Source of the DNA: Acidobacteriota bacterium
Lineage (GTDB): Bacteria; Acidobacteriota; Blastocatellia; Pyrinomonadales; Pyrinomonadaceae
NCBI GenBank assembly: GCA_031431735.1
Contig: JANPDZ010000466.1
Coordinates: 1-50,122, forward strand
Direction of reading: 5' to 3'
Length of the DNA stretch: 50,122 nucleotides
Position numbers and translations under genes: made by a program. The notes beneath the pieces were generated by a model, which did no database searches, was not told the origin of the DNA, and saw nothing but the letters and a program-made list of their open reading frames with translations. This document shows, piece after piece, positions 1 to 34,979 of this stretch (position 1 is the first letter of the stretch; every line of letters starts with the position of its first letter).

Positions 1-146
1 AATTGGACGATAACAACGCCAACGTTGCCGGCATATATTGTGGTATCAATTACGGATTCCACACAATCTTGCCATCAAAAATACTCTTCTCCAGTGATTT
101 GGCGAAGGTTTTGATAAAAAGTCACACTTTTAATTACACCCGGTAA
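1..146 (+). CDS. 3' end of unidentified CDS entering from upstream (partial)
   Basis: Frame 3 open from window edge to TAA 144-146 (..GIYCGINYGFHTILPSKILFSSDLAKVLIKSHTFNYTR*); no family motif recognised. Confidence 0.25.
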   Translation, partial: LDDNNANVAGIYCGINYGFHTILPSKILFSSDLAKVLIKSHTFNYTR

Positions 147-281
147 TGCGTCAGTAAAAAGTTAGATCTGCCCACGAAACACACGAAAAGCACGAAAAAA
201 AATCAACTTTTGTTTTTTTTAGTTTATTTCGTGTGTTTCGTGGGCAATAAATCTTTCTTTAACTTTTAACTGAGGCATCAC
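143..281. mobile_element. MITE-like nested palindrome with GTAATGC.TCAGTAAAAAG-type termini
   Basis: Outer inverted repeat GTAATGCGTCAGTAAAAAGTTAG (143-165) / CTTTAACTTTTAACTGAGGCATCAC (257-281); inner inverted repeat TGCCCACGAAACACACGAAA (169-190) / TTTCGTGTGTTTCGTGGGCA (227-246); same termini at 5946-6176 and 43288-43336. Confidence 0.5.
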
Positions 282-316
282 AAATGCCGCTGACAAATTG
301 TCGTTGCTGCAACGGC

Positions 317-1633
317 TTATTTCGTTATCAAATTTTTATAAACTTCACCGCCTTTCATCACAAATTGAACATTTTCAAAAACCTTTACGTCTTGCAAAGG
401 GTCATTTGTGACCGCGATGATGTCGGCATATTTGCCGGCAGAGATCGAACCGACCTTATCGCTCCAACCTAACAAATCCGCGCCGTTGACGGTTGCCGCC
501 TGAATCGCTTGCATCGGTGTCAAACCGAATTTGACCATATAGAAAAACTGTTTGCCGTTCCAGCCGTGAGGATAAACGCCGGCGTCGGTACCGTAGGTTG
601 CCTTGACGCCCGCCGTCACCGCTTTTTGAAAATTCTCGCGCTGAAGTCTGCCGACCAGCTTTTCTTTATTGATGATTATTTCGGGATAGCCGAGTTTTGA
701 ATATTCGGCGAGAATGTAATCGTCGTTGTAAATATCGGCGGAAAGATATGTTCCGCGTTCCTTCATCATTTGAATGCCTTCAGCGTCAATCAGGCTCCCG
801 TGTTCGATTGACGCAACGCCCGCTTTGATCGCCATCTTGATCGCTTCCGTGCCGTGGGCGTGAGCGCACGCCTTGATACCGTGAAGGCGCGCTTCGTCAA
901 CGATCGCGTTCATCTCTTCCTGCGTAAATTGCGGCGCGCCAACGCTTGCTTCTTCCGATAAAACGCCCGCGCTCGCGCCGAATTTGATGACATCCGCGCC
1001 GTATTTTATTAAATAACGAACCTTTTTCCGCAACGCATCCGGACCATCGGCGACGCCCGACATTTCTTCTGGCATCCGCGAACTGAGCCACGGTGAAAAA
1101 CCGTTCAGATCGCCGTGACTGCCCGTTGAACCGATGTAATAGGTGGCGACCTGCATTCTTGGTCCCGGAATTTTTCCGCCGTTGATAGCGTTTCGCAGTG
1201 CGACCGCAACAAAGCCTTCCGAACCGACATCGCGAACGGTCGTAAAACCCGCATCGAGGGTGCGGCGTGCGTAAATATGACAAGTGATCGCGCCGTCAAC
1301 AAACGATTTACGGAAAATATCGTCATAATACCCGCCACTGTCGCTCGGGTCGCCCGTCAGATGAACGTGCGTGTCAATCAAACCCGGCACGACGGTCGCG
1401 TTTGAAAGGTCTATGACCTTCGCGCCGGCCGGAATCTGCAAATTTGCACCGACCGCTTTGATCAGATCGTTTTCGATCAGGATCATCTGATTGGTCAAAA
1501 TCTTGCCGGTTTGCGTATCAATCAATTTTCCCGCCTTGATCACCGTCACCGAAACGTTTTGCGCGTTAGCAAACAAAACCGAACTCAAAAATAAAACTGT
1601 CCACAAAAGCCCAAAAATAATAATTTTTCGCAT
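317..1633 (-). CDS. secreted metal-dependent amidohydrolase (amidohydrolase superfamily, COG1228-like)
   Basis: Signal-peptide-like N-terminus MRKIIIFGLLWTVLFLSSVLFANAQ; HxH metal motif in PGLIDTHVHL; AHAHG, IEHGS, YGTDAGV motifs; ATG at 1633 preferred over TTG at 1663. Confidence 0.8.
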   Translation of the reverse strand: MRKIIIFGLLWTVLFLSSVLFANAQNVSVTVIKAGKLIDTQTGKILTNQMILIENDLIKAVGANLQIPAGAKVIDLSNATVVPGLIDTHVHLTGDPSDSGGYYDDIFRKSFVDGAITCHIYARRTLDAGFTTVRDVGSEGFVAVALRNAINGGKIPGPRMQVATYYIGSTGSHGDLNGFSPWLSSRMPEEMSGVADGPDALRKKVRYLIKYGADVIKFGASAGVLSEEASVGAPQFTQEEMNAIVDEARLHGIKACAHAHGTEAIKMAIKAGVASIEHGSLIDAEGIQMMKERGTYLSADIYNDDYILAEYSKLGYPEIIINKEKLVGRLQRENFQKAVTAGVKATYGTDAGVYPHGWNGKQFFYMVKFGLTPMQAIQAATVNGADLLGWSDKVGSISAGKYADIIAVTNDPLQDVKVFENVQFVMKGGEVYKNLITK

Positions 1634-1832
1634 TTTTCCGAATCTCACTTTAGTTTTTTGCAAATTGCTTAAAGAAATAGTTCTCTAAACATAAAGGCAA
1701 AAGGCAACCGCGTCAAATAAATCAAGTAAGCACTTGGATTTTAGGATAAACTTTTGTTTGTGTATTTGTTAAGATAAAGGCATAAAAGTTGCCTTTTGAT
1801 TTTTGTCGAAAAGGCGTTTTGGGAGTTTTTTT

Positions 1833-2462
1833 ATGATAACAACAACGACAAATAAAGGTTCGACCATTTTTGTTTATCGGTCTGAGCCGTTTGAATTTGC
1901 TTTGGGTTCGCTTCTCAAGCCGATAGATGACGATGAGTTTTTGAAACTCAGCCGAAACAATCAAGGTGTGCAAATCGAAATGACAAAGGATGGAGATTTA
2001 ATTATTATGCCCGGAACAGGCGGATTAACAGGGAGAAAAAATTCAAGAATTATTAGAAGACTTGACGAATGGGCGGAAAAAGACGCAAGCGGCGTAACTT
2101 TTGATTCCGACACGATTTTTTGTCTGCCAAACGGAGCAAAAAAGATTCCCGACGCATCCTGGGTAAGCAATGAAAAATGGAACGCGCTTTCAAAAGAAGA
2201 ACAAGACAAAATTGTCCCTTTCGCGCCGGATTTTGCCATCGAACTTCGTTCACGCACCGATTCGCTCAAAGATTTACAAGAAAAAATGCAGGAATACATC
2301 GAAAACGGCGTGTCTTTAGGTTGGCTGATTGATGCGAGCAATCACAAAGTTTATGTTTATCGTCAAGGCGCGGAAGTCGAAACGCTGGAAAATCCAACTG
2401 AAATTTCGGGCGAACCGCTTCTTCAAGGCTTTACGCTTAATTTGAAAGAGATTTGGGAATAA
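1833..2462 (+). CDS. Uma2-family (DUF820) PD-(D/E)xK putative endonuclease
   Basis: Core PDFAIELRS..D, C-terminal GVSLGWLID..KVYVY; close paralog of 3239..3874 and 9142..9777; ATG 1833 preferred over TTG 1803. Confidence 0.75.
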   Translation: MITTTTNKGSTIFVYRSEPFEFALGSLLKPIDDDEFLKLSRNNQGVQIEMTKDGDLIIMPGTGGLTGRKNSRIIRRLDEWAEKDASGVTFDSDTIFCLPNGAKKIPDASWVSNEKWNALSKEEQDKIVPFAPDFAIELRSRTDSLKDLQEKMQEYIENGVSLGWLIDASNHKVYVYRQGAEVETLENPTEISGEPLLQGFTLNLKEIWE

Positions 2463-2465
2463 TTT

Positions 2466-3194
2466 ATGAGAATTCCAACCCTGCAAGGCATTATCAAACG
2501 AAGACTTCTGGTAAATTTCCGCGCCGATGCCGAAAATATTCAAAAGATTCTGCCAAAAGAATTTCGTCCGAAATTACAAAAAGGCAAAGCGATTGCCGGA
2601 ATTTGTCTGATTCGGCTTGAACAGATGCGACCGAAATTTACGCCGGAATTTCTCGGGCTTTCGAGCGAAAACGCCGCGCACCGGATCGCCGTTTTGTGGG
2701 AAGACGATTCGGGCGAAACGCGCGAAGGAGTTTATATTCCGCGCCGCGACACCGATTCATTTATCAATGCGACGATCGGCGGAACGCTTTTTCCCGGCAA
2801 ACAGAATCGGGCTGATTTTACGGTCGAACGCGAGAAAAATGAGATTGATTTTGCGATGGAGTCGAAAGATAAAAAAGTTGCCGTCGCACTAAAAGGAAGA
2901 ATTACGGACACGTTGCCCGAAACTTCCATTTTTTCTTCGCTTGCTGAATCATCGAAGTTTTTTGAACCCGGATCACTCGGGTTTTCGGTCACAAACGACG
3001 TCAACTATCTGGACGGCATCTCTTTAGAAACAAAGAGTTGGAAAGTTGACGCGCTCGAAATTGATTATGTTCATTCGAGTTTTTACGATGACGCGAGCAT
3101 TTTCCCGAAGGGCGCGATCGAATTCGATCACGCGCTGATTATGCAAAACATCGCGCACGAATGGCACAGTGCGCCGCCGTTTGAGTTACGGTAA
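2466..3194 (+). CDS. hypothetical protein, possibly DUF2071-like (acetoacetate decarboxylase-like fold)
   Basis: 242-aa ORF starting 3 nt after preceding stop; N-terminal pattern LLVNFRADAENIQKILPKEF..GKAIAGICLIRLEQMRP resembles DUF2071; family call is weak. Confidence 0.45.
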   Translation: MRIPTLQGIIKRRLLVNFRADAENIQKILPKEFRPKLQKGKAIAGICLIRLEQMRPKFTPEFLGLSSENAAHRIAVLWEDDSGETREGVYIPRRDTDSFINATIGGTLFPGKQNRADFTVEREKNEIDFAMESKDKKVAVALKGRITDTLPETSIFSSLAESSKFFEPGSLGFSVTNDVNYLDGISLETKSWKVDALEIDYVHSSFYDDASIFPKGAIEFDHALIMQNIAHEWHSAPPFELR

Positions 3195-3238
3195 TATAAT
3201 TCAGATTTCCTTGGTAAAATGTTTTGAGAGGTAATTTT

Positions 3239-3874
3239 ATGAGTTCGATTACGGTTGACACCAGACTTATCGGCGGAATGTTTAGAGAATATACTCCGAA
3301 ACTGCGTTTGGATTTCGGCAATAAAGCGAAGAAGCTCAGCGATGATGATTTTTTTGAATTTTGTCGTGAAAACGCTGATGCGCGGATCGAAATGGATGCA
3401 AACGGAGATATTGAAATTATGCCGCCGACAGGAAGCGAAACGGGAATTAAAAACTTTAAATTAACGACGAAGTTTGGCGTTTGGGTGGAAAAAGACGGAA
3501 GCGGCGAAGGCTTCGATTCTTCAACCGGATTCACCTTACCGAGCGGTGCCAAGCGGTCGCCTGATTTGTCGTGGATAAAATTGGAAAAATGGAATGCGAT
3601 TCCGAAAGCCAAACGCAAGAAATTTGCGCCCGTCTGTCCCGATTTCGTCGTCGAACTTCGTTCCGAAACCGATTCGCTCGAAAAATTGCAGGAAAAAATG
3701 AAGGAATACATCGAAAACGGCGCGTCTTTGGGCTGGCTGATTGATGCCGGAAAACGCAAAGTTTACGTTTATCGTCCTGAAAAGGAAGTTGAAATTATGA
3801 GGAATCCGACCGAAATTTCCGGCGAACCGCTTCTTAAAGGATTCGTGCTGAATTTGAAAGAGATTTGGGAGTAG
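3239..3874 (+). CDS. Uma2-family (DUF820) putative endonuclease
   Basis: PDFVVELRSETDSL, GASLGWLID..KVYVY; same architecture as 1833..2462; ATG 3239. Confidence 0.75.
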   Translation: MSSITVDTRLIGGMFREYTPKLRLDFGNKAKKLSDDDFFEFCRENADARIEMDANGDIEIMPPTGSETGIKNFKLTTKFGVWVEKDGSGEGFDSSTGFTLPSGAKRSPDLSWIKLEKWNAIPKAKRKKFAPVCPDFVVELRSETDSLEKLQEKMKEYIENGASLGWLIDAGKRKVYVYRPEKEVEIMRNPTEISGEPLLKGFVLNLKEIWE

Positions 3875-3883
3875 AAAAAAGCT

Positions 3884-4156
3884 ATGCAAGTTACAGTTGA
3901 ACAAATAGAAAATGGAGTCAAACAGCTTTCACGGGAAGATCTGCGGAAAGTTCAAGAATTAGTGGATTCACTTTTGAAAACAGAAGAAACGAAACCGAAA
4001 ATGAGCGAAGAAGAATTTTTGAAAGAACTTGAAGCAGAAGGTTTTATCGGTAAAGTTCCGCCGCCGATCACTGATTTTTCGCGTTACGATAACTACAAAC
4101 CCGTCACCGTCACAGGCGAACCGATTTCGGAAATGATAATCAGGGAGCGACGCTAA
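3884..4156 (+). CDS. putative antitoxin of PIN toxin (unclassified family)
   Basis: 90-aa acidic ORF; its stop abuts the toxin start (TAA-ATG at 4154-4159); frameshifted paralog at 6771..7042. Confidence 0.55.
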   Translation: MQVTVEQIENGVKQLSREDLRKVQELVDSLLKTEETKPKMSEEEFLKELEAEGFIGKVPPPITDFSRYDNYKPVTVTGEPISEMIIRERR

Positions 4157-4618
4157 ATGGCGACTTATTTTTGCGATACAAGTGCGTTGGCAAAACGCTA
4201 TGTGACCGAAACGGGTTTGGCTTGGCTGATGGCAACGATTGACCCGAAAGTCGGCAATTATGTTTTTATCGCTCGAATTACGTTTGTCGAAGTCTTTTCA
4301 GCAATTTCGCGCAAAGAACGCGGCGGACATATTTCCGCAATCGATGCGGCAACTGCAAAAAAGCAATTTGAAACAGATTATTCAGGCGAGTTTGTCAGCG
4401 TCGAGATTACGGAAACATTAATTCTCGAAGCCGCAAGACTTGCCGAAAAACACGCTTTGCGCGGCTATGATGCCGTTCAACTGGCGGCGACGTTGGAAAC
4501 TCAAGCCAAACGTGCAGTCCGAAAATTGCCGCCTTTAACTTTGCTTTCCGCCGACACAGATTTAAACGCGGCGGCGGTCAGCGAAGGTTTGACGGTTGAT
4601 AATCCGAATAATCATTAG
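4157..4618 (+). CDS. PIN-domain ribonuclease toxin (VapC-like)
   Basis: N-terminal YFCDTSALAKRY (first acidic residue), later GYDAVQLA and SADTDL motifs typical of PIN domains; coupled to upstream small ORF. Confidence 0.7.
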   Translation: MATYFCDTSALAKRYVTETGLAWLMATIDPKVGNYVFIARITFVEVFSAISRKERGGHISAIDAATAKKQFETDYSGEFVSVEITETLILEAARLAEKHALRGYDAVQLAATLETQAKRAVRKLPPLTLLSADTDLNAAAVSEGLTVDNPNNH

Positions 4619-4642
4619 TCAGAAAAGGTTTGGGATTAGTTT

Positions 4643-5227
4643 ATGAAATCAGCAAGAATTTTCATTGTTTTTACTTTTCTTTTGGCATTCGTTGTTTGCG
4701 TTTCAGCGCAAGCTAATCCTTATCCAAATGAATTAAGAGGTTATGAGTTTTTTGGAAAAGGAAAATTAAAAGACTTAAAACTTGGAGTTTCGACAAAAGA
4801 AGATACTAAAAGGATTTTTGGACAAGACTGCGAATATGTTTGTCAATATGATGAAAACTGGTTTGTTAATTTTGATTTCATTGATGAGAACACAACAAAA
4901 GAAATAGGCGGCAAGAAATTTATCCCAAAGAAAGAATTTATTGGAACACTTTATTCAATAACCTTACAACCTAAGAAGAATATTTCTTTTCAAAAGATTA
5001 AATTTTCTAAGTCATTTGCTTTGGGTAATGGTGGCGGTTCAGCTTCTGGTAGTGAAACGGACGAAGGTTCTTGGTATGAGAGTAAAGTCTACGAAGATTC
5101 AAGCGGATTAATTTATGATATTTGCAAAAAGAGTTTTCCAGATAAATGTAAAAAAGGCGAACTGTTAGCAATCGAATACACGCTTCCAAAGAAATCCGAA
5201 GCTAAATTATTCACTTTACAAAAATAA
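4643..5227 (+). CDS. hypothetical secreted protein
   Basis: Signal peptide MKSARIFIVFTFLLAFVVCVSAQA; visibly A+T-rich relative to neighbours; no motif recognised. Confidence 0.5.
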   Translation: MKSARIFIVFTFLLAFVVCVSAQANPYPNELRGYEFFGKGKLKDLKLGVSTKEDTKRIFGQDCEYVCQYDENWFVNFDFIDENTTKEIGGKKFIPKKEFIGTLYSITLQPKKNISFQKIKFSKSFALGNGGGSASGSETDEGSWYESKVYEDSSGLIYDICKKSFPDKCKKGELLAIEYTLPKKSEAKLFTLQK

Positions 5228-5228
5228 A

Positions 5229-5295
5229 TTTATGCAATTTTCATTTGATACAAACTTAAACAGAATCGCCGCAAAGATTGAAGCAAATGAGCGTT
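5229..5295 (+). repeat. relic copy 1 of the 5' end of the radical-SAM gene at 7966
   Basis: TTTATGCAATTTTCATTTGATACAAACTTAAACAGAATCGCCG identical to 7963-8005; encodes [23 protein letters not shown] versus [24 protein letters not shown]. Confidence 0.85.
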
Positions 5296-5634
5296 TTATT
5301 TGAAATCTTCTTCAACTTCTGCGATCAGATATTTTAGTTCTTCATCAGTGATGTTTTCGGTTTCGGCTTTGTCGTAAATTGAGAGCAGATAAACGGTTTG
5401 GGCTATTTGATAAAAATAGGAAATAACACGCGCACCGCCGCTTTTGCCTTTGTTTTTGCTTGAGATTGCGAGGCGGATTTTATAGACGTTTGCGCCGAGC
5501 GATGTTCCGAGCGCGGCGTTTTCTTTTAGTTGGTCAACGAGGTTTTGTAAATCGTTCGGGAAAGATTTGTAGCGTTTGGCGAAACGTTTCGCTTGTTTTT
5601 GAAAAGTTTGGCGGACAATGATTTTATTGCTCAT
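5296..5634 (-). CDS. RelE/ParE-superfamily toxin (DUF1044-like)
   Basis: KGKSGGARVISYFYQ..VYLLSIYDKAETENITDEEL is the characteristic core of this toxin group; overlaps upstream small ORF by 11 nt. Confidence 0.65.
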   Translation of the reverse strand: MSNKIIVRQTFQKQAKRFAKRYKSFPNDLQNLVDQLKENAALGTSLGANVYKIRLAISSKNKGKSGGARVISYFYQIAQTVYLLSIYDKAETENITDEELKYLIAEVEEDFK

Positions 5635-5860
5635 CTTTTAATTTGGCAATGAAATCATCGGCGGAAAGATTGCGGTTTGCGTCCGCATTTTCATTTTGCA
5701 AATCTTTTTTGAGATTGGTCAGCGATTTTTTGAAATCGGTTAGAATGTCTGCTTTATTCACACGCTTTTTAAGCCGCAACAGTTCGTTCTGCAACTTTTC
5801 CCAATATTGGATTGGCACGATAACTGCGTCTTGGTCTTTTAGATATTGAATGTTTTGCAT
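5624..5860 (-). CDS. putative antitoxin of the RelE-like toxin
   Basis: 78-aa ORF from internal ATG (MQNIQYLKDQDAVIVPIQYWEKLQNEL), overlapping toxin start; position and size only. Confidence 0.5.
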   Translation of the reverse strand: MQNIQYLKDQDAVIVPIQYWEKLQNELLRLKKRVNKADILTDFKKSLTNLKKDLQNENADANRNLSADDFIAKLKDEQ

Positions 5861-5885
5861 AATTAATTTCGGCTGAATATTCACA

Positions 5886-6245
5886 AAATTTGATAGAATT
5901 ATAACAAAAATATGCAATTTTCACACGATAAAAATTTGAATTTGAGTAATGTTTCAGTTAATTCGAAACCACTACCAGAGGTAGTGGCTTACTCTTAGTA
6001 AAAAGTTTTAGCGACTGGAGCGCAAGCGTCCCCGCTTGCCATGAGCGTTGCTTCGACGCGAAAAAGCTTTGTTAAATTCGACGATAATAGGCTCGCGAAC
6101 GTCATTTTCGCGCTTTCGCGCTCAGGCAAGCGGGGACGCTTGCGCTCCAGTCATAACTTTTTACTGAGGCATTACTAATTTGATTTCGGAAAAAGTCGAA
6201 GGACGCGAGCGTTTGACTTTTAATGATGGAATATCACTTTCGCAA
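5886..6245 (+). pseudogene. relic copy 2 of a divergent mqn-type gene 5' end, split by a MITE
   Basis: ATG 5912 MQFSHDKNLNL, then element 5946-6176, then ISEKVEGRERLTFNDGISL; joined reading aligns with [30 protein letters not shown] of the gene at 7966. Confidence 0.75.
5946..6176. mobile_element. MITE-like nested palindrome inserted in relic copy 2
   Basis: Termini GTAATGTTTCAGTTAA / AACTTTTTACTGAGGCATTAC; inner 28-bp arms GACTGGAGCGCAAGCGTCCCCGCTTGCC / GGCAAGCGGGGACGCTTGCGCTCCAGTC; flanked by AATTTGA (5939-5945 and 6177-6183); removal restores the relic reading frame. Confidence 0.65.
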
Positions 6246-6413
6246 CAGACTTGTTTCGCTAACCGATTTGTTTTTCGGCAATCCGACTTTTGCTAAAACT
6301 TCATTCGCTTTGGCGAGTTTTTCGGGAAACAGATTTTTTCCGCGCAATTTTTCCAACGACTTATCAACTCTCACAATCGGCGTTTTACTCTTGTTTAGTT
6401 GTTCTATTTTCAT
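6234..6413 (-). CDS. small hypothetical protein (59 aa, below ORF-track cutoff)
   Basis: Hand translation: MKIEQLNKSKTPIVRVDKSLEKLRGKNLFPEKLAKANEVLAKVGLPKNKSVSETSLLRK*; its ATG overlaps the stop of an upstream small frame (ATGA). Confidence 0.35.
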   Translation of the reverse strand: MKIEQLNKSKTPIVRVDKSLEKLRGKNLFPEKLAKANEVLAKVGLPKNKSVSETSLLRK

Positions 6414-6570
6414 ACAAGTTTGTTCTCCGTGTTACCCAAAAAGGCTTCGTAGTCTTTTCCCTTTTCAAATTCATACCAAACATTTTCTTTCAGCCCAAAG
6501 ACTTCAAAATCCCCTGAAATTTCTTCGAGATTAAGCCTTCGGTTGCATATTCATATCTTGGCAGTTTCAT
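6410..6570 (-). pseudogene. small ORF upstream of 6234..6413, apparently frameshifted
   Basis: ATG at 6570 gives MKLPRYEYATEG.. and stops early; an adjacent frame continues ..LNLEEISGDFEVFGLKENVWYEFEKGKDYEAFLGNTENKLV* ending in ATGA overlap. Confidence 0.2.
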
Positions 6571-6685
6571 CTATTTCTTTCGGCAACACTCGCCTTTAGC
6601 TCTCAAATTCGCCGCAATGGAAATTATACGCCGAATTTTTCTAAATTAAAATCATTCGGAAATTGGAGTGTGAATAAAGCCGGAT

Positions 6686-6765
6686 ATTTGATAAAATTAG
6701 AAACAGAATATATGCAATTTTCACACGATACAAACTTAAACAAAATCGCCGAAAAGGTTAGGTAA
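6686..6765 (+). repeat. relic copy 3 of a divergent mqn-type gene 5' end
   Basis: ATG 6712 MQFSHDTNLNKIAEKVR*; shares the CACACG variant and ~26 nt of upstream sequence (ATTTGATA.AATTA..) with copy 2. Confidence 0.8.
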
Positions 6766-6770
6766 AATTT

Positions 6771-7042
6771 ATGCAAGCAGTTTTAGAAAATATTGAAAAA
6801 GAAGTGCAAAGTCTTTCAGCTACAGAACTTGCGAAGGTCAAAGAATTGGTTGATTCTTTGTTGGAAAAGAAAGAAGCGAAACCAACAATGACCGAAGAAG
6901 AGTTTGAGCAGCATCTTTACGAAAAAGGAATATCACCGAAGTTAAACCACCGATAACGGATTTTTCGCGCTATAACGATTACAAACCGATAACCGTGACA
7001 GGTGAACCGATTTCGGAAATGATAATCAGGGAGCGACGATAA
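6771..7042 (+). pseudogene. frameshifted paralog of the antitoxin at 3884..4156
   Basis: MQAVLENIEKEVQSLSATELAKVKELVDSLL.. parallels 3884 product; frame breaks near 6930-6942; other frame continues VKPPITDFSRYNDYKPITVTGEPISEMIIRERR*; last 35 nt identical to 4119-4153. Confidence 0.6.
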
Positions 7043-7231
7043 GTGAAAGTTCGTGAACTAATAAAATTGATTGAAAAAGATGGTTGGCATTTGGTCAGAA
7101 CAAAAGGCAGTCATCGCCAATTTCATCATCTAAGAAAAAGCGGCACGGTGACGATTGCCGGAAAAGAAAGCGTTGAGGTTCCGGCGGGAACGGCGAACAG
7201 CATTTTGAAACAAGCGGGATTGAAAAAATAG
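7043..7231 (+). CDS. hicA: HicA mRNA-interferase toxin
   Basis: GTG start directly after TAA; MKVRELIKLIEKDGWHLVRTKGSHRQFHH is the canonical HicA N-terminus. Confidence 0.8.
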   Translation: MKVRELIKLIEKDGWHLVRTKGSHRQFHHLRKSGTVTIAGKESVEVPAGTANSILKQAGLKK

Positions 7232-7243
7232 CGAGGTAAAATT

Positions 7244-7459
7244 ATGCGGTATATGATTGTTATTGAAGAGGGCGAAACGAGTTTTGGTGCGTATGTGCCG
7301 GATTTACCGGGTTGCATCGCGGTTGGCGAGTCGGAAACAGAAGTCAAACAATTAATTCAGGAAGCAATCGAATTTCATCTTGAAGATTTGCACGAATCGG
7401 GCGCGGAAATTCCGAAGCCTTTGTCGAAAAGCGAATATGTCGAAGTTTTAGCCGTGTGA
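7244..7459 (+). CDS. hicB: HicB-family antitoxin
   Basis: MRYMIVIEEGETSFGAYVPDLPGCIAVGESETEV..AIEFHLE matches the HicB N-terminal domain; immediately downstream of hicA. Confidence 0.75.
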   Translation: MRYMIVIEEGETSFGAYVPDLPGCIAVGESETEVKQLIQEAIEFHLEDLHESGAEIPKPLSKSEYVEVLAV

Positions 7460-7513
7460 TCTAAAGTTAAATGTAGGAAATAGAATAGATTAGAACAAGA
7501 GCGTAAATGATTT

Positions 7514-7852
7514 ATGAATAACCAGACGAAATGTTATTTATGCGGAAATGTTATCAAAGCCAACTTTGGTAATTCTACAGCATGTGATAACTGCTTCAAA
7601 AGCCTTGAAGCTGGAACCTACAAATCTATTCAAAGAGATACGCCAAAACCTAAAGAAAATAATTCTAACATTACAACAACTTCGACTAATCGTAAATTCT
7701 CAAAGTTGTTTTTTGAATACATAGGAACCGTAGGCGGACTATTGACTATCTTACTTGCCGCCTATAATTTTTATTATGTCACTAAACGACGGAAAGAGTT
7801 TAAAAGATTCTTTTATATTTGCGGCGATTATATTTGGGTTTCTTGTTTTTAG
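7514..7852 (+). CDS. hypothetical zinc-ribbon membrane protein
   Basis: CYLCG..CDNC Cys pairs at N-terminus, one predicted TM helix (VGGLLTILLAAYNFYYV); A+T-rich. Confidence 0.4.
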   Translation: MNNQTKCYLCGNVIKANFGNSTACDNCFKSLEAGTYKSIQRDTPKPKENNSNITTTSTNRKFSKLFFEYIGTVGGLLTILLAAYNFYYVTKRRKEFKRFFYICGDYIWVSCF

Positions 7853-7965
7853 GATGATTTTAGCTTGGTTAAGATACAAATAAGTTTAAACCTTTACGAA
7901 ATAAATAAAAATCGTGGACTAAATCATACGAGGAAATTTTAGGGCAAAGTTTAAAGAACAGATTT

Positions 7966-9072
7966 ATGCAATTTTCATTTGATACAAACTTAAACAGAAT
8001 CGCCGAAAAGGTTGAAGCGGGGGACCGTTTGACCTTTGATGAAGGCATCGAATTATACAAAACCGACGATTTGAACGCGCTCGGTAAATTGGCGGATTCG
8101 GTTCGGCGCGCAAAACACGGAAAGACGACTTATTACAACGTCAACCGGCATTTTAATCACACGAATATCTGCGTTGCGGACTGCAAATTCTGCGGTTTTT
8201 ACCGCCGCGCTCGGCAGTCGGACGCTTATACGCATTCGATTGCGGAAGCGTTGGAGATTGCGGGAAACGCTGTCAAAGAAGGCGCGACCGAACTTCATAT
8301 TGTCGGCGGTTTGAACTCGAAATTGCCGTTTGAGTATTACATCGATTTGTTTTCGTCATTAAAACGCGAATTTCCGCGTCTGCATCTTAAAGCGTTGACG
8401 ATGGTCGAGCTAGATTTTATGGCGCGGTTTTATAAAATGTCGGACGAAGAAGTGATCGAACGCCTCAAAGCGGCGGGAATGGACAGTTGCCCGGGCGGCG
8501 GCGCGGAGATCTTTGCCGAACCGACGCGTTCGCGCATCTGCGACCATAAATGCGACGGAATGCGCTGGCTCGAACTCGCCGGAAAAGTCCACAAAGCGGG
8601 ACTTAAAACCAACGCGACGATGCTTTACGGACATATCGAAACGACCGAAGACCGCGTTGACCATTTTGTAAAACTGCGTGAACAGCAAGAAAAATCGGGC
8701 GGTTTTCAATGTTTTATTCCGCTCGCGTTTTATCCGGCGGGAACTGCGCTTTCATCACTTCCCGGACCGGACGCGATTGACAATCTGAAAACGATCGCCG
8801 TTTCGCGCCTGATGCTCGACAATTTCGACCATATCAAAGCGTATTGGGTAATGCTCGGCAAGGCGACGACACAAACCGCGCTTCATTTCGGCGCGAACGA
8901 CGTTGACGGCACGATTACCGACGGCGGCGAACTGACGCACGCTTATTCGGTCGAAGAAGGCGGCGAACAGAAAATGACGAAGGCTGAATTAATTACGATG
9001 ATCGAAAACGCCGGTTTTGAAGCGGTCGAGCGCGATACGGTTTACAATCGCGTCGAAAAGGTTGCGGCGTAA
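7966..9072 (+). CDS. radical-SAM enzyme of the futalosine menaquinone pathway (MqnE/MqnC family)
   Basis: [10 protein letters not shown] = CxxxCxxC radical-SAM cluster motif; ~368 aa with N-terminal GERLTFDEG-type region and [12 protein letters not shown] typical of MqnE/MqnC/CofH-like enzymes; cannot separate MqnE from MqnC by eye. Confidence 0.7.
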
Positions 9073-9087
9073 TTTGTAGAGAAAGAT

Positions 9088-9124
9088 AGCGCGATTCCGA
9101 AAACAAAATTAACGCCCGAAGAAT
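9088..9124 (+). repeat. direct-repeat copy of codons 2-14 of the Uma2 gene at 9783
   Basis: AGCGCGATTCCGAAAACAAAATTAACGCCCGAAGAAT versus 9786-9822 AGCGCGACTCCGAAAACAAAATTAACGCCCGAAGAAT (36 of 37). Confidence 0.85.
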
Positions 9125-9141
9125 TTTAGAGGAGAAGAAAG

Positions 9142-9777
9142 ATGCAGACAGTTTCAGAAAAAACTTACAGTAAAATTTTTGTTCCCAACAACTCCGGCGC
9201 ACTACGTTTCAAATTCGAGGCGAATAATAAACGGCTGAAATTCACCGATGATGAATTTTGGGAATTTTGCCGTCAAAACGATGAGATGCGAATTGAAATG
9301 ACCAAAGAAGGAGACGTAATAATTATGCCGCCGACGGGAAGCGAAACGGGCGAAAGAAACGCCGAAATTACGATGCAGTTAAGAATCTGGGCGAAAAAAG
9401 ACAAATGCGGCAAAAGTTACGATTCTTCAACCGGATTCAAACTGCCGAACGGCGCGACCGTTTCGCCGGATTCATCTTGGGTTTTAAATAAAAGACTGGA
9501 AAAATTTACCGCCAAACAGCGCGAAAAATTTCTGCCGCTGTGTCCCGATTTTGTTTTAGAATTGCGTTCCGCGTCAGACAGTCTGAAAATAGCGCAAAAT
9601 AAAATGCAGGAATACATCGAAAACGGCACGCGACTCGGTTGGCTGATTGATCCGAAAAATAAACGGGTTCACATTTACCGTGCAAACGGCGAAATCAAAA
9701 TCTTGGAAAATCCGGATAAAGTTTCGGGAGAAGATGTTTTGCCCGGGTTTGAATTGGATTTGACAGAGATTTGGTAA
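9142..9777 (+). CDS. Uma2-family (DUF820) putative endonuclease
   Basis: RBS GAGGAG; PDFVLELRSASDSL, GTRLGWLIDPKNKRVHIY; paralog of 1833 and 3239 genes. Confidence 0.75.
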   Translation: MQTVSEKTYSKIFVPNNSGALRFKFEANNKRLKFTDDEFWEFCRQNDEMRIEMTKEGDVIIMPPTGSETGERNAEITMQLRIWAKKDKCGKSYDSSTGFKLPNGATVSPDSSWVLNKRLEKFTAKQREKFLPLCPDFVLELRSASDSLKIAQNKMQEYIENGTRLGWLIDPKNKRVHIYRANGEIKILENPDKVSGEDVLPGFELDLTEIW

Positions 9778-9782
9778 AAATT

Positions 9783-10361
9783 ATGAGCGCGACTCCGAAA
9801 ACAAAATTAACGCCCGAAGAATATCTCGAATTTGAGCGAAAATCCGAGACGAAGCACGAATATTTTAACGGCGAAATCTTTGCGATGTCGGGCGCAAAGC
9901 GAAATCATAATGTCGTTGCGTGGAATATCGGCGGTGAGTTACGGCAAAAGTTGAAGGGCAAAAGTTGTGAAGCCTATCCGGCAAATATGCGCGTTTTTGT
10001 TCCGCAAACAGGACTTTACACTTATCCTGATTTGGTCATTGTTTGCGGTGAACCGCAGTTTCAGGACGATGTTTTCGACACTTTGCTCAATCCGATTTTA
10101 CTTATTGAAGTGCTTTCCGATTCGACCGAATCTTATGATCGCGGCAAAAAGTTTCAGCATTATCGAAGCATCGAGAGTTTGCAGGAATATGTTTTGGTCG
10201 CGCAGGACGAAGCGCGAATCGAAAAATATATCCGGCGCGGCGACGGCTTTTGGCTTTTATCGGAAGCGGTCGGTTTGGGTGCGGAAATCGAATTTTCTTC
10301 GGTCGAATGCCGCATTGCGCTGGCGGAAGTTTATGACAAGATAGATTTTGAAAATGAGTAA
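9783..10361 (+). CDS. Uma2-family (DUF820) putative endonuclease, second subtype
   Basis: LTPEEYLEFE..HEYFNGEI, YTYPDLVIVCG, NPILLIEVLSDSTESYDRGKKFQHYRSIESLQEYVLV are classic Uma2 blocks. Confidence 0.75.
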   Translation: MSATPKTKLTPEEYLEFERKSETKHEYFNGEIFAMSGAKRNHNVVAWNIGGELRQKLKGKSCEAYPANMRVFVPQTGLYTYPDLVIVCGEPQFQDDVFDTLLNPILLIEVLSDSTESYDRGKKFQHYRSIESLQEYVLVAQDEARIEKYIRRGDGFWLLSEAVGLGAEIEFSSVECRIALAEVYDKIDFENE

Positions 10362-10842
10362 TGCCCGCCAACATTTAATCCGCATTCTGCAAAATGCTCA
10401 CGCCGGCGAACTGGCGGCGGCTTTTGCTTATCGCGGACATTGGAAATCTTTGCGTGAATCGGCGGAAAAAACGCAAATAAAAAAGATTGAAGCGGAAGAA
10501 TGGGCGCATCGCGCGAATGTGCGAAAGTGGCTTGAGTATTTAGGCGCGAAGCCGCGTAGAATCAGAGAAGCCCTTTTTTGGACAATTGGCAAAACAATCG
10601 GCGTAGCGTGTTATATTTCGGGTTGGTTTTTCCCGATGTATTTTGCCGGCCGTCTTGAAAGCCAAAATGTTCAGGAATATGTAACGGCGGCTGAATTTGC
10701 GCGCGAATTGAAGATGCCGGATTGCGCCGAAGAATTGATGGAAATGTCGCTGACAGAACAAGAACACGAAGATTTTTTCAGGCAAACTGTCGCGAATCAT
10801 CGTCTTTTGCCAATTACGCGCAAGATATTTCGTTGGAGCTAA
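10354..10842 (+). CDS. ferritin-like di-iron protein (demethoxyubiquinone hydroxylase-like family)
   Basis: Two ExxH motifs (EAEEWAH, TEQEHEDFF) in a ~160-aa helical protein; start overlaps preceding stop. Confidence 0.5.
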   Translation: MSNARQHLIRILQNAHAGELAAAFAYRGHWKSLRESAEKTQIKKIEAEEWAHRANVRKWLEYLGAKPRRIREALFWTIGKTIGVACYISGWFFPMYFAGRLESQNVQEYVTAAEFARELKMPDCAEELMEMSLTEQEHEDFFRQTVANHRLLPITRKIFRWS

Positions 10843-10845
10843 TTT

Positions 10846-10879
10846 GATTTGAGATTTGGGATTGCGGATTTGGGATTTC
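10846..10879. repeat. tandem heptamer array, GATTGCG type (single arm)
   Basis: GATTTGA GATTTGG GATTGCG GATTTGG GATTTC immediately after stop of 10354..10842. Confidence 0.7.
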
Positions 10880-10913
10880 TTGTTTCTACTCGCTATAATT
10901 TTTTCCATTAGAC

Positions 10914-11084
10914 ATTATTTGAAATAAAGAAATTATCCACGAAGGGACACGAAGATTTCACGAAGGACAGAAAAAGTTGCGGATTAGTTAAAACTGAACC
11001 GACAAAGGGCGATAAATATTTCAAAAAAAGAAAAAATCTTCGTGTTTTCTTCGTGAAACTTCGTGGATAGTTATTTCAAATAAT
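10914..11084. repeat. long imperfect palindrome with CACGAAG-repeat arms
   Basis: ATTATTTGAAATAA / TTATTTCAAATAAT outer arms; inner ATCCACGAAGGGACACGAAGATTTCACGAAGG / CTTCGTGTTTTCTTCGTGAAACTTCGTGGAT. Confidence 0.65.
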
Positions 11085-11101
11085 CTCTATTAGAGCTCAT
11101 C

Positions 11102-11222
11102 GGAAATAAGAAAGATTTGCCCACGCGTACAGACGAAACCATCTAAAAGTGTTTTTGCTTTGCTTTAAATTTAGTGGTTTTCGTGTTTTTCGCAGGCAGA
11201 ATTTCTGCTCTATTTTATTTCC
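11102..11222. repeat. imperfect palindrome, TGCCCACG / CACGAAA type
   Basis: GGAAATAAGAAAGATTTGCCCACGCGTACAGACGAAACCA versus TGGTTTTCGTGTTTTTCGCAGGCAGAATTTCT..TTATTTCC; right arm nearly equals reverse complement of 19843-19862. Confidence 0.55.
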
Positions 11223-11246
11223 AACAATGTCTATTCCTGATTTTTA

Positions 11247-12167
11247 ATGCCGAAAAAAAAAAGTAACTTACAAAACAGATCAGAACTTTTCGCCGTGCGC
11301 TCGCTTTTGGGCGCGATCGGCGCGTTACCGCTCGAAACTTCAATGAGATTCGGGAAAGCGGTCGGCAAATTCCTTGCAAAACGATTTCCAAAATTACAAA
11401 AAACGGCGCGTCGTAATCTGGAAATTGCTTTGCCTGAGTTAACAGAAACCGAAAGAAAAAAAATTGTTCACGGCACATTTGAAAGTTTGGGCAGACATCT
11501 CGGTTTTGTTTCGCATTTCAGGAAATTCAAGCACGAAGACATTCGCGATCTGATCGAAGTTGTCGGCAAAGAACATTTTGACAAGGCGCATGAAACAGGT
11601 CGCGGAATTTTGTTTTTCACGGGACATTTCGGCAGTTGGGAAGTTTTTAATCTGCTGCCGCCGGCATTCGGTTACGGAATGAATATTCTTGTGCGCCGGA
11701 TTGATAATCCGCTTGTGGAAAACTTTGTGGATAAAATGCGAACTCGTTTCGGATCAGTTACTTTGGATAAAACAAAATCAACGCGGACGATGTTTCGCGC
11801 ACTCGAAAACGGCGAACTTCTCGGTATTCTGGCGGATCTGAATGTGCAGGAAAAAGAAGGCGTGTTCGTCGATTTTTTCGGCGTCCTGGCTTCAACTACC
11901 TTGAGCATTGCCAAATTAGCGATCAAAACCGACGCGGTCGTGCTTCCGGCGTTTGCTGTCTGGGAAGAATCGAAAAAGAAATACGTCGTTTATCTCGAAC
12001 CGCCGATTGAATATTCGAAAGGCGACAATTCGCCTGAAAACATCCTCGAACTGACGCAAAAAATCACAAACACGGTCGAAAAATACGTCCGCCGTTATCC
12101 CGAACAATGGCTCTGGATCCACAAACGATGGAATACGCGCCCGCCGGGCGAAGCAAACCTCTACTGA
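11247..12167 (+). CDS. lipid A biosynthesis (LpxL/HtrB-type) lysophospholipid acyltransferase
   Basis: FFTGHFGSWE (HX4-acidic motif), C-terminal RYPEQWLWIHKRW typical of the Kdo2-lipid IVA acyltransferase family. Confidence 0.7.
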   Translation: MPKKKSNLQNRSELFAVRSLLGAIGALPLETSMRFGKAVGKFLAKRFPKLQKTARRNLEIALPELTETERKKIVHGTFESLGRHLGFVSHFRKFKHEDIRDLIEVVGKEHFDKAHETGRGILFFTGHFGSWEVFNLLPPAFGYGMNILVRRIDNPLVENFVDKMRTRFGSVTLDKTKSTRTMFRALENGELLGILADLNVQEKEGVFVDFFGVLASTTLSIAKLAIKTDAVVLPAFAVWEESKKKYVVYLEPPIEYSKGDNSPENILELTQKITNTVEKYVRRYPEQWLWIHKRWNTRPPGEANLY

Positions 12168-12317
12168 TTGCGGATTGCGGATTTCGGATTGCGGATTTAT
12201 TTTTTAACGAATTCGAATCTTTCCGTGCCAATCTAACCAATCCGCAATCCCCAATCCACAATCCACAATCGAATGGATTTAACCAATCCGAGATCCGCAA
12301 TCCCCAATCCGAGATCG
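12166..12317. repeat. GATTGCG-type heptamer hairpin plus duplicated right arm
   Basis: GATTGCGGATTGCGGATTTCGGATTGCGGATTT (12166-12198) opposed by AACCAATCCGCAATCCCCAATCCACAATCCACAATCG (12236-12272) and a second block AACCAATCCGAGATCCGCAATCCCCAATCCGAGATCG (12281-12317). Confidence 0.75.
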
Positions 12318-13265
12318 TATGAACCAATCAGTAAATTTCGGAATTCCCTGTTCGATCTTCGTTTGCGGATTGTAGCCCAAAAGTTCCCGCGCTTTGGAAA
12401 TATCGGCAAAGGTTAGCGGAACGTCGCCGGGCTGCATCGGGCGGCGTTCGATGATCGCTTTTTTGCCGATGTTTCGTTCGATCAGCTCGATCAAATCATT
12501 CAATTCAATCGTCTGCGATTCGCCGAGATTGAAAATCTCGTAATTCGATTTGTCGTAATCAATCGCGGCGCGCACGCCTTGAATGATGTCGTCAACAAAC
12601 GTGTAATCGCGCCGCGTCGTGCCGTCGCCAAAAACAGGAATCGGTTTTTCTTCCGAAATCAGGCGCGAAAATTTGTGAATTGCCAGATCGGGACGCTGAC
12701 GCGCACCGTAAACCGTGAAAAAACGAAGGCAAACTGTCCGAATGTCGTAAAGATGCGAAAACGTGTGACAAAGCAGTTCGCCCGCCGCTTTGGTTGCGGC
12801 ATATGGTGAAATCGGTTTCGAGACTTTATCTTCTTCCGAGAAAGGAATTTTGCAATTTATCCCGTAAACCGAGCTTGACGAACCGAAAACAAATTGTTTG
12901 ACGCCGAAATCTTTCGCCAGTTCAAGCAGATTCAAAGTGCCGTTGACGTTGACCTGCGCGTAAAGTTTCGGATTCAGCAAGCTAGGGCGCACGCCCGCCC
13001 ACGCCGCGAGATGGACGATTGCGTCAAAAGAGTTTTCCGCGAAAATCCCGCGCAAAGTTTCCGGACAGCAAATATCGGCTTCGTAAAGCTGAAAACGCGG
13101 ATTATCCAGATGCGCGGCGATATTGGCGCGTTTGATTTCGGGCGCGTAAAAATTGTTAAAATTATCGACAACCGACACCTGCCAGCCGTTTTCAGCCAAC
13201 AATTTATCAACCAAATGCGAACCGATAAAGCCCGCGCCGCCTGTTACTAAAATTTTTTTATTCAC
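12279..13265 (-). CDS. NAD-dependent sugar-nucleotide epimerase/dehydratase (SDR family)
   Basis: [13 protein letters not shown] Rossmann motif, YAATKAAGE (YxxxK); last ~12 codons lie in the heptamer repeat. Confidence 0.8.
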
Positions 13266-13348
13266 TTGCTTTTATTAAAATCGGATGGCAAAAACCAAAT
13301 CTTAAACTCAAGAAAAATAACACGGTTTTGATGATTTTGGCAAAAACA

Positions 13349-14200
13349 TTAATTCAAAAATCTCTGGCGTGCGTGAAACCGATGAACGAGTTCTTCGAGA
13401 AAACCTTCATAAGTAAAGGCTTGCAAATCATAGTTCGGCTTGATTTTATACATTATCGGCAGGGCGACGCGCCACGCCATCCAAAGCCGCTGGCGGTCAT
13501 TCAGGTCCCAACGCCGCCGCAGAAAAGTTTCAACGACCTCGATTTCGCCCTCGGTCAATAGATTTACATCCGCCTGAAAATCCGTCCGCTTTTGCACGCG
13601 CCGAAATGCGGCATCACTGATCTGATTGGAAAAAGTTTCGGCAAAGGTCGGGGCTTCGTCGGTGCGTTCGCGAATCACGACCGTTCCCGCAAACATATCG
13701 CCGATGCGCTGGTCGCGGTTGTTCATAAAGATCGAAACCAGTCCGATCGAATAGATCGGGATAAAAAATCCCGGTATCGCATCAAAAATCCGTAACAGAT
13801 TTCGCGCGATCGCTTCCCAGAGCGTGATCGGACGACCGTCTTCGCGAATCACGCGCAACTTCATCAGACGCTTGCCCGGCGTTTGCCCGTTCCAAAGCCA
13901 TTCAAAAAAGATGAAATATCCCGCAAAAAGCAGAAAAAGAATAATTATCATCAAGGCGAGTGTCCATTTTGACATTTCCCCGAAAAACCCCGCCGCCGAT
14001 TGCGATTCTGTCAGAGTTTTCCCTGCTCCTGTCCAACTAAAAAACGCCCAAACAACGATAAAAATTGACAGATATTGAATAAAGTGATCAATTGCCACTG
14101 CCAGAAAACGATTGCCGATCGAAGCCAGCGCAAAAGCGAGCGGCACACGTTCGGGCGTTTCGATGATCAAGGTTTCTTCGGTTTCGATGATATGCGCCAT
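13349..14200 (-). CDS. RDD-family membrane protein
   Basis: N-terminal TM region with GQTPGKRLMKLRVIREDGRPIT (RDD-domain signature) and further TM helices. Confidence 0.65.
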   Translation of the reverse strand: MAHIIETEETLIIETPERVPLAFALASIGNRFLAVAIDHFIQYLSIFIVVWAFFSWTGAGKTLTESQSAAGFFGEMSKWTLALMIIILFLLFAGYFIFFEWLWNGQTPGKRLMKLRVIREDGRPITLWEAIARNLLRIFDAIPGFFIPIYSIGLVSIFMNNRDQRIGDMFAGTVVIRERTDEAPTFAETFSNQISDAAFRRVQKRTDFQADVNLLTEGEIEVVETFLRRRWDLNDRQRLWMAWRVALPIMYKIKPNYDLQAFTYEGFLEELVHRFHARQRFLN

Positions 14201-34896: not shown

Positions 34897-34901
34897 TTGC
34901 C

Positions 34902-34977
34902 GATTTGGGATTTAGGATTGCGGATTGCGGATTGCTCGGTTATCAAATCCGCAATCCGCAATCCTAAATCCCAAATC
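34902..34977. repeat. GATTGCG heptamer hairpin (32-bp stem)
   Basis: GATTTGGGATTTAGGATTGCGGATTGCGGATT - GCTCGGTTATCA - AATCCGCAATCCGCAATCCTAAATCCCAAATC, between recR stop and plsC-like start. Confidence 0.85.
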
Positions 34978-34979
34978 CA

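Follow-up and report, generated by a model that had tools for sequence, protein, structure and literature searches.

A 37-nt direct repeat around a Uma2 gene beside mqnE in Pyrinomonadaceae: probably an old scar of additive recombination between related haplotypes

We analyzed a 50,122-nt stretch of DNA from an Acidobacteriota bacterium of the family Pyrinomonadaceae (contig JANPDZ010000466.1, positions 1 to 50,122; this whole stretch is called the window below), focusing on a Uma2-family gene that follows the menaquinone gene mqnE and is bracketed by a direct repeat of 37 nt. All features of this arrangement lie on the forward strand. mqnE (7966..9072), the conserved core gene of a cassette hotspot, encodes aminofutalosine synthase: the product scores 473.9 bits against NCBIfam TIGR03700 (cutoff 434.55), contains the Pfam domains Radical_SAM and CofH_C, and has orthologs in 80 Pyrinomonadaceae loci. 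The 15 nt directly after its stop codon (9073..9087, TTTGTAGAGAAAGAT) are a remnant of the native 5' leader and ribosome-binding site of a second Uma2 gene, Uma2B; they are homologous to that leader in relatives (GGAGAAAGAAA-ATG), namely to ...TTGGAGAAAGAAA-ATG 5' of Uma2B or of its stranded start in L004, L093, L108 and L129 (L-numbers denote fetched related loci). Next comes the upstream copy of the repeat (9088..9124), a stranded version of Uma2B codons 2-14. Overlapping it, a 37-nt block (9099..9135, GAAAACAAAATTAACGCCCGAAGAATTTTAGAGGAGA) comprises the junction 9124|9125, an in-frame TAG (9127-9129) and the ribosome-binding site of the bracketed gene, Uma2A, for which it is a possible leader. 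Uma2A itself (211 aa, 9142..9777) is followed by the right junction (9778..9785), where the 5-nt spacer AAATT and an ATG restore the resident Uma2B (192 aa, 9783..10361); this junction is conserved in relatives, with the pattern TGG-TAA-(A/G/C)AATT(n)-ATG kept in 15 loci.

The two copies, AGCGCGATTCCGAAAACAAAATTAACGCCCGAAGAAT at 9088-9124 and its counterpart at 9786-9822, are identical at 36 of 37 positions, the sole difference being T/C at 9095/9793, and their starts are 698 nt apart, just as an earlier note on this DNA had read from the letters alone. The downstream copy forms codons 2-14 of the Uma2B open reading frame (ORF) that begins at ATG 9783. The upstream copy is preceded by ATA in place of ATG, its start codon having been lost by a one-base deletion, and runs in frame into the TAG that abuts the Uma2A ribosome-binding site. 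The insert between the copies measures 661 nt and consists of 17 nt including AGGAG, the Uma2A ORF, AAATT and the ATG; on the missing start codon and on the sparse content of the bracketed segment, too, the earlier note was right. Exactly two copies of the 37-mer with at most three mismatches exist in the window, compared with none in 100 dinucleotide-preserving shuffles. Neither terminal inverted repeats nor dyad symmetry were found at the 37-mer or the cassette boundaries, and a promoter and terminator scan found none between mqnE and the COQ7-like gene downstream, which fits co-transcription and is uninformative on a leader role.

Both Uma2 proteins are members of PF05685 (Uma2A, PD-(D/E)xK-like, 138.3 bits, 2.3e-40; Uma2B 112.4 bits, 2.1e-32; gathering cutoff 27), and the Uma2 proteins of the locus match the PADLOC candidate defence family PDC-S03. 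Uma2A also matches TT1808 (PDB 1WDJ, 2e-29), a protein of function unknown. Two further genes in the window are paralogs of Uma2A (1833-2462 and 3239-3874), and all four Uma2 genes of the window stand in the region flanking mqnE; bracketing by a duplicated start is seen for one of the four.

To place this arrangement among relatives, we used 160 loci obtained by scans with MqnE and Uma2B, the MqnE-anchored set coming almost entirely from metagenome-assembled genomes titled Pyrinomonadaceae or Acidobacteriota. The window itself is absent from the collection in which proteins were looked up by exact match: MqnE, Uma2A and Uma2B of the window gave no hit there. Orthologs of Uma2B (at least 66% identity) always lie between mqnE and the COQ7-like or LpxL-like acyltransferase genes. 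Among 56 Uma2B loci, mqnE adjoins Uma2B with a spacer of 4-20 nt in five (L006, L095, L118, L121, L127), another insert separates the two in 16, and a gene of the Uma2A or Uma2C type precedes Uma2B in 19; loci outside these three classes are too short to tell. The five uninterrupted loci are the empty sites that the earlier note's account of the cassette implies, and they agree with its proposal that a gene-sized segment sits near the beginning of a resident gene, here within its first 14 codons, whose start was duplicated and whose ORF survived. A plausible donor is also represented among the relatives: In L002, L007, L030 and L115 Uma2A directly follows the mqnE stop as GTT-TAA/TGA-GGAG...ATG, and in all of these except L002, which has no Uma2B, the latter comes next. 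In L125, where the end of mqnE has received a small secreted-protein gene, a degenerate mqnE 3' fragment (915-1010) precedes Uma2A; we conclude that in this haplotype Uma2A moves together with the end of mqnE.

The left junction of the window is shared. The joint GAAGAAT|TTTAGAGGAG occurs in 11 loci (the window, L001, L005, L072, L093, L100, L108, L113, L122, L129 and L145) and is decayed yet recognizable in L161, L162 and L163, which brings the number to 14. Their Uma2A proteins are 60-87% identical to that of the window and about as diverged as the neighboring genes. One joint common to 14 loci together with cargo so diverged argues for a single old event and against recurrent homing, and the 36/37 identity of the repeat is no evidence of recency. 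The ATG of the stranded start is still intact in L005, L108, L113, L122 and L129, where it opens a 14-codon mini-ORF, MSAIPKTKLTPEEF followed by a stop. A search of all loci with a core 25-mer returned 47 true Uma2B starts (ten with variant downstream codons) and 11 junction copies, all in one orientation; the 37-mer is not the common dispersed repeat, unconnected with gene starts, that the earlier note had considered as an objection. L005, L161 and L163 possess the relic and Uma2A in the absence of Uma2B, the relic being their only trace of that gene. All closest homologs of Uma2A that were looked up in large contigs or genomes reside at the mqnE locus; in L037, L040 and L043-L046, where a Uma2A-like gene immediately precedes mqnE, no start is duplicated. 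We also considered whether the two copies of a locus had undergone gene conversion; this is unsupported, as the copies in L093, L100, L108 and L145 keep different variants.

Two variants of the arrangement deserve mention. In L161 (4945-5636) the TAG has become CAG, which fuses the relic in frame to Uma2A, possibly yielding an N-terminally extended chimeric Uma2 protein; Uma2A of this locus also overlaps the start of the COQ7-like gene. Another type, Uma2C (40-50% identical to Uma2A), precedes Uma2B in L097 (5336-5360), L109 (1036-1070) and L131 (60-95), and occurs in L111 as well. Here the stranded start is shorter (7-10 codons), and in L097 it is fused in frame and uses the Uma2B ATG; these variants are either an independent insertion or a deletion derivative.

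Uma2A and Uma2B have mosaic histories, their identity matrices being uncorrelated (Spearman 0.15). Across the lipoprotein gene, Uma2A and the first ~95 nt of Uma2B, L093 and L108 share about 99% identity; the body of Uma2B (1718-2200 in L093) then drops to 60-85%, and the next gene returns to 93%. Likewise, in many pairs of loci the first 90 nt of Uma2B stand out as an island of 93-100% identity between flanks of 59-78%. Judged from these alignments, the swap of the Uma2B body resembles allelic replacement, or diversifying selection acting on what is a candidate defence gene.

The parallel with the mqn-type gene that the earlier note had drawn is real. Three partial copies of the mqnE start, each of another allele and accompanied by the upstream neighbor known from other genomes, lie upstream of the gene in the window, and 5' copies are also present in L003, L005, L115 and L122. 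Copy 1 (5232..5295, forward strand; 22 protein letters, AAKIEANER allele) directly follows a lipoprotein gene (4643-5227) and matches the real start over 70 nt at 91%; allele type and lipoprotein neighbor together are the arrangement of the functional mqnE in L047 and L010. Behind it a RelE-family toxin and its antitoxin (5296..5917, reverse strand; Pfam RelE 7.7e-10) fill the space up to copy 2 (5912..5940, forward strand; MQFSHDKNLN allele). Copy 2 corresponds in allele type to L004, L072, L097 and L015; in the last three of these the RelE-family pair stands directly upstream of the functional mqnE, and the 20 nt upstream of copy 2 also recur there before the functional gene. Copy 3 (6712..6765, forward strand) resembles the real start over 58 nt at 90%, the partial copy spanning 6712-6760, and reads as a mini-ORF (MQFSHDTNLNKIAEKVR and a stop) that ends 5 nt before the ATG of the next cassette. 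This cassette (6771..7852, forward strand) contains a frameshifted antitoxin paralog, HicA (HicA_toxin 3e-19), HicB (HicB_lk_antitox 2e-13) and a small membrane protein; a DUF6934 remnant is a further part of the cargo between the stranded starts and the functional gene. The frameshifted segment (6764-7045) is 72% identical in nucleotides to 3877-4159, where the antitoxin gene 3884-4156 lies, and is followed by HicA-HicB and not by a PIN toxin, so that it looks, from the alignment, as if the toxin module had been swapped at the 3' end of the antitoxin gene.

The other end of mqnE behaves in the same way. Its 3' end is repeated downstream of the gene in L003, L011, L012, L013, L018, L023, L024, L028, L029 and L163, with fragments located, for example, at 11639-15353 in L028 (up to five), 10076-10868 in L013, 13395-14154 in L024 and 4677-4737 in L163. 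The cargo enclosed by these 3' duplications is a Uma2B-like gene (L011, L023), HicAB (L013, L024), an antitoxin with PIN_3 (L012), HigB-HTH (L018) or a Uma2A-like gene (L029, L163). Each displaced 3' end represents a different allele and still reads to its own stop codon. In L011, the two copies are near-identical for 58 nt and then differ almost only at third positions (14 third-position and two first-position differences by hand count on the alignment, one of the latter silent); this pattern implies that both evolved as working gene ends in different lineages before they were juxtaposed. On these comparisons, the stranded mqnE termini are best described as foreign or older alleles and not as in-situ copies of the adjacent gene, and the array in the window as a stack of left flanks from different haplotypes. 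Two further candidates were dismissed: A bracketed gene downstream of mqnE in L026 turned out to involve only two fragments of one gene start, and a transposase gene in L012 (6765-7568; REP-associated tyrosine transposase, REP standing for repetitive extragenic palindrome; Pfam Y1_Tnp), which belongs to the variable stretch on the downstream side of mqnE, has 34-nt REP-like repeats at its flanks and not a duplicated gene terminus.

How concentrated these events are became apparent from a survey of direct repeats (28-260 nt, at least 85% identity, spaced 250-4000 nt) in the 1.45 Mb of fetched sequence, in which 23 of 27 repeats fell into the variable regions flanking mqnE. The boundaries of the duplications vary, with 5' copies ending at +20 to +67 and 3' copies starting at -238 to -18. 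The backbone of the locus runs from a UbiA/MqnP-like prenyltransferase gene via mqnE and the COQ7-like gene to the LpxL-like acyltransferase gene, and both sides of mqnE are highly variable. We found there VapBC-like (PIN), HicAB, RelE-family and Gp49/HigB-HTH toxin-antitoxin pairs, several types of Uma2, DUF6438 lipoproteins, DUF2071, DUF6642 and a HaeII-type restriction enzyme; nearly all cassettes are co-oriented with the operon and separated by a few nt. Apart from L012, no integrase or transposase was detected in the neighborhoods by Pfam on the scanned neighbors or by inspection of representative ORF families. The HaeII-type endonuclease lies directly upstream of mqnE in L002 (4136-5476), L008 (142-1317), L047 (8333-9394), L162 (327-2315) and L163 (191-2242), in the last two beside a DNA methylase, which indicates that a genuine restriction-modification unit uses the mqnE hotspot.

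The stranded start may have acquired a use. The block 9099-9135 is nearly invariant in ten loci. Among six scored loci with an adjacent Uma2B it agrees pairwise at 32-36 of 36 positions, their Uma2A coding sequences being 77-88% identical, and for several pairs its conservation significantly exceeds that of the coding sequence (against L005, 35/36 with 66% for the latter; P about 6e-6). The RNA would be unusually unstructured, as expected of an open translation-initiation region: no hairpin was found at the leader, whose minimum free energy is -3.3 kcal/mol, compared with a shuffle mean of -8.4 (z = +2.4). In L007, L030 and L115 the Uma2A ribosome-binding site likewise directly follows a stop codon, in this case that of mqnE, which suggests translational coupling. 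The stranded start may thus serve as the leader of Uma2A, a role that we infer from conservation and position. Against such a constraint, the mini-ORF is intact in only 5 of 14 relic loci, and the block has decayed in L161, L162 and L163. An Rfam scan of window positions 1-14000 identified no RNA family at the leader and returned only spurious miRNA-model matches on long palindromes. We also asked if the synonymous sites in the first 14 codons of Uma2B stand out by their conservation; it is only moderate (0.75, overall 0.59) and not above that of the best internal codons, 116-130.

Taken together, we think it likely that the repeat is an old scar of additive recombination between related haplotypes, carried out by the host and not by the cargo. 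The upstream 37-mer would represent the resident Uma2B's 5' end, its leader and first 14 codons, left stranded, and the block added to it would comprise the stop codon and ribosome-binding site, Uma2A, the 5 nt and a Uma2B start. The recipient would have been a haplotype in which Uma2B came after mqnE, either directly or behind a small lipoprotein gene, and the donor a related haplotype with Uma2A directly between mqnE and Uma2B. The structure would then be an illegitimate joint between two haplotypes that still exist, mqnE-(lipoprotein)-Uma2B and mqnE-stop/RBS-Uma2A-Uma2B (RBS, ribosome-binding site; L007, L030, L115). The insert is indeed contiguous with a gene order found in related haplotypes, as are the stranded mqnE starts with their neighbors. 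Two routes could lead there: a single (Campbell-type) crossover of a circularized fragment, or a one-ended event in which a homologous crossover within Uma2B was paired with an illegitimate joint at codon 14. By either route the segment of homology would be doubled and the resident ORF would stay whole. Such doubling has been obtained experimentally: circular molecules with partial homology, integrating by a single crossover, gave duplications of 109-950 bp of the homologous locus (PMC3240628). The event would have happened once, anciently, in a Pyrinomonadaceae lineage, and the arrangement would since have been inherited and reshuffled by homologous recombination. Locus-wide, toxin-antitoxin, Uma2 and restriction-type genes would accumulate at the mqnE operon by the same process, each addition stranding an older mqnE or Uma2B terminus. 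Selection would keep only those products in which mqnE, which would be needed, and Uma2B are whole, and replacement events would probably be disfavored, with resident toxin-antitoxin modules resisting loss; we infer that additive events were favored in this way.

Several points weigh against this explanation. The 37-mer pair, with its one difference, is too short and too similar to reveal an allele switch, which the mqnE copies (L011, copy 1 of the window) do reveal. No circular or linear donor intermediate was observed, and either route fits the sequence; homology-facilitated illegitimate recombination (HFIR) usually deletes recipient DNA instead of duplicating it (PMC3240628). Nor does the explanation account for one locus drawing almost all events in 1.45 Mb. 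Moreover, at three junctions of the window a stop codon comes 0-2 codons past the joint, which may reflect selection or a more specific process. Finally, all nine compared loci with Uma2B alongside have kept the leader block, and of the four with no adjacent Uma2B three have lost it (L161, L162 and L163, with L005 as the exception), a pattern which hints that the two repeats interact.

Such an interaction is the core of the alternative that survives best, to which we give a small but appreciable chance. A mobile, recombinase-less cassette would use the repeats as its functioning attachment sequence, and they would be no passive scar: one 37-mer plus Uma2A would loop out as a circle, with the junction ...TGGTAAAAATTATGAGCGCG...GAAGAAT|TTTAGAGGAG closed on itself, and re-enter Uma2B starts by a homologous single crossover. 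Beyond the better preservation of the block beside a neighboring Uma2B, it can be argued that the stranded copy in L093, L100, L108 and L145 is the commonest Uma2B start allele and not the locus's own, and that one leader is joined to two divergent allele groups of Uma2A (L122 and L005 on one side, the window on the other). There is also a precedent: Kobayashi's group proposed for restriction-modification units a life cycle resembling that of viruses, and the idea is taken up in their discussion (PMC2853133). The junction, however, is of single origin, Uma2A, at 74-87% identity, is as diverged as its neighbors with no sign of recent spread, and no circle junction was observed. At 37 nt, moreover, the repeat is near the minimum for RecA-dependent exchange, and the contrast between kept and decayed blocks rests on 13 phylogenetically non-independent loci.

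A broader version of this idea strikes us as improbable. In it, the gene-terminus blocks, that is, the 37-mer and the mqnE ends, would be attachment sequences of an integrase-less cassette platform in the menaquinone operon, through whose flanking repeats Uma2, toxin-antitoxin and restriction cassettes loop out and in, with breaks made by the resident Uma2 PD-(D/E)xK nucleases. If true, it would explain why nearly all events in the 1.45 Mb fall at one locus that always carries Uma2 genes.

The same concentration could point to a site-specific recombinase encoded elsewhere that inserts cassettes at gene-terminus attachment sites, the repeats being attL and attR, in the manner of integron cassettes or of integrase-less satellites of integrative elements. 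The cassettes are one or two genes in size (spacings 620-810 nt), co-oriented, tightly packed and rich in toxin-antitoxin genes, as in chromosomal integrons, and every 5' stranded mqnE copy includes the first 20 nt of the gene, a possible core. Yet a recombinase gene was not found within 10 kb at any of the loci, the repeat boundaries vary, the mqnE 3' events have no common core, and three unrelated sites (mqnE 5', mqnE 3' and Uma2B 5') would be needed. The 37-mer has no dyad symmetry and shows less structure than any of 200 shuffles, and the stranded pieces are diverged functional alleles, as general recombination predicts. We therefore regard a dedicated recombinase as quite improbable.

The earlier note had suggested that the cargo nuclease was the agent of its own insertion, and this we consider very unlikely. 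Uma2A would be a PD-(D/E)xK endonuclease that cuts the Uma2B start in empty alleles (mqnE stop - leader - ATGAGCGCG...GAAGAATATCTCGAA) and is copied in during repair. Pfam describes Uma2 proteins as having a nuclease-like fold, in four or more of the bracketed arrangements the cargo is of the Uma2 family (the window; L011 and L023; L029; L163), and cargo-made double-strand breaks are suspected by the authors of the restriction-modification precedent as the driver of insertion with long target duplication (PMC2853133). Nevertheless, no Uma2 protein has a known nuclease activity, its PDB entries being 'hypothetical' and the literature giving the function as unknown. Homing does not duplicate its target; here the downstream copy keeps ATG...GAAGAATATCTCGAA unbroken and only the sequence 5' of the ATG differs from empty alleles, so the insertion confers no immunity. 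The junction is one by descent in all 14 loci, with cargo 60-87% identical, and no copy of Uma2A was found outside the mqnE locus among those looked up. The same signature, furthermore, encloses HicAB, RelE, PIN, HigBA and lipoprotein cargo. The toxins of HicAB, RelE, PIN and HigBA come from known RNase families.

Tandem duplication of an ancestral Uma2 gene with the 37-mer as last conserved remnant, the other possibility the earlier note had weighed, is refuted: runs of Uma2 paralogs are known (PMC2701414) and both genes belong to PF05685, but the proteins lack detectable similarity (BLASTP E = 0.96), the upstream 37-mer lies outside Uma2A, before its ribosome-binding site and not at its start, similarity is only 73% in that part of Uma2A which is homologous to the motif (KFTDDEFW, 9238-9259), and empty sites exist.

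The closest precedent for a scar of additive recombination is insertion with long target duplication (Nobusato et al. 2000; Furuta, Abe & Kobayashi 2010, PMC2853133). As in that class, a short unit with a (putative) nuclease is flanked by direct repeats of more than 30 bp, one copy of which is present at the uninterrupted site of relatives, the insert is smaller than 20 kb, the repeat length varies, no transposase or integrase is involved, and the mechanism is unknown. The cargo differs: the class comprises restriction and modification homologs, whereas we found a solitary Uma2 ORF with no methyltransferase and, elsewhere at the locus, toxin-antitoxin pairs or lipoproteins. By the authors' criterion the feature is not a member of the class, but it works like one. 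Further differences are that the target here is always a gene terminus with the resident ORF intact, that events are stacked at both ends of one core gene, and that the stranded copies are diverged alleles, which argues for recombination between haplotypes and not for a staggered cut or cargo-made breaks. With Campbell-type integration and HFIR (PMC3240628) the arrangement shares homology at one end only and a homologous segment that is duplicated and flanks the insert; at 20-240 nt, the duplications of this locus are shorter than those of the single-crossover experiments (109-950 bp), and classical HFIR gives deletions.

Other systems are less similar. Like a free-standing homing endonuclease gene, a small gene with a nuclease fold is wedged among resident genes and polymorphic in presence, but the target is duplicated and intact, the origin single and old, and the cargo not dispersed. 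A DNA transposon or miniature inverted-repeat transposable element (MITE) would have terminal inverted repeats, absent here, and a duplication of <15 bp and not of 37 nt. Integrase islands at gene ends (tRNA or tmRNA genes; SXT at the 5' end of prfC) provide a surrogate end and show tandem accretion of stranded att fragments. The likeness is that a replacement terminus keeps the resident gene intact and older termini pile up as fragments; unlike these islands, the mqnE locus has no integrase, single-gene inserts, no fixed core and three different termini. Chromosomal integron arrays resemble it in their co-oriented, promoter-less, toxin-antitoxin-rich cassettes of roughly 0.6-1.3 kb with repeats in between, but the repeats here are resident coding sequence and not attC, they have no hairpin potential, and no intI was found. 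Paralog cassettes of Uma2 (COG4636, PF05685) were classified as a 'likely solo toxin' by Makarova et al. (2009, PMC2701414), who also saw several Uma2 genes side by side among toxin-antitoxin modules; that work concerns clustering only, and flanking duplications of neighboring gene starts are not reported there.

Some other repeats in the window should be kept apart from the one described. Intergenic palindromes of the type GATTGCGGATT.../...AATCCGCAATC at 10853-10902, 12166-12326, 34901-34987, 35599-35709 and 43966-44050 are probably terminator- or REP-like. Two of them flank recR (34980-35594; 34.9-35.7 kb) at a spacing that is again 698 nt; a connection was rejected, these repeats being intergenic palindromes and the agreement a coincidence. 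Near-perfect palindromes of about 130-150 nt at 6007-6158 and 148-279, which gave spurious matches to plant and animal miRNA hairpins, may be MITE- or REP-like, and one of them sits upstream of mqnE within the array of cassettes. The octamer ACCCTTTT forms arrays at 33354-33555 and 37059-37204, each with the complement AAAGGGTA just before it, which lie 3.6-3.7 kb apart on either side of a block of several genes.

The finding reveals neither a new mobile element nor the function of Uma2. What it indicates is that small selfish or defence genes (Uma2, toxin-antitoxin pairs, restriction enzymes) can thread into an essential operon without breaking it: the incoming DNA would supply a replacement gene end, and the old end would be left stranded as a datable fossil. 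The signature of long target duplication is thereby extended beyond restriction-modification systems, and the stacked mqnE fossils would form a readable record of successive haplotype exchanges in an uncultured family of soil bacteria.

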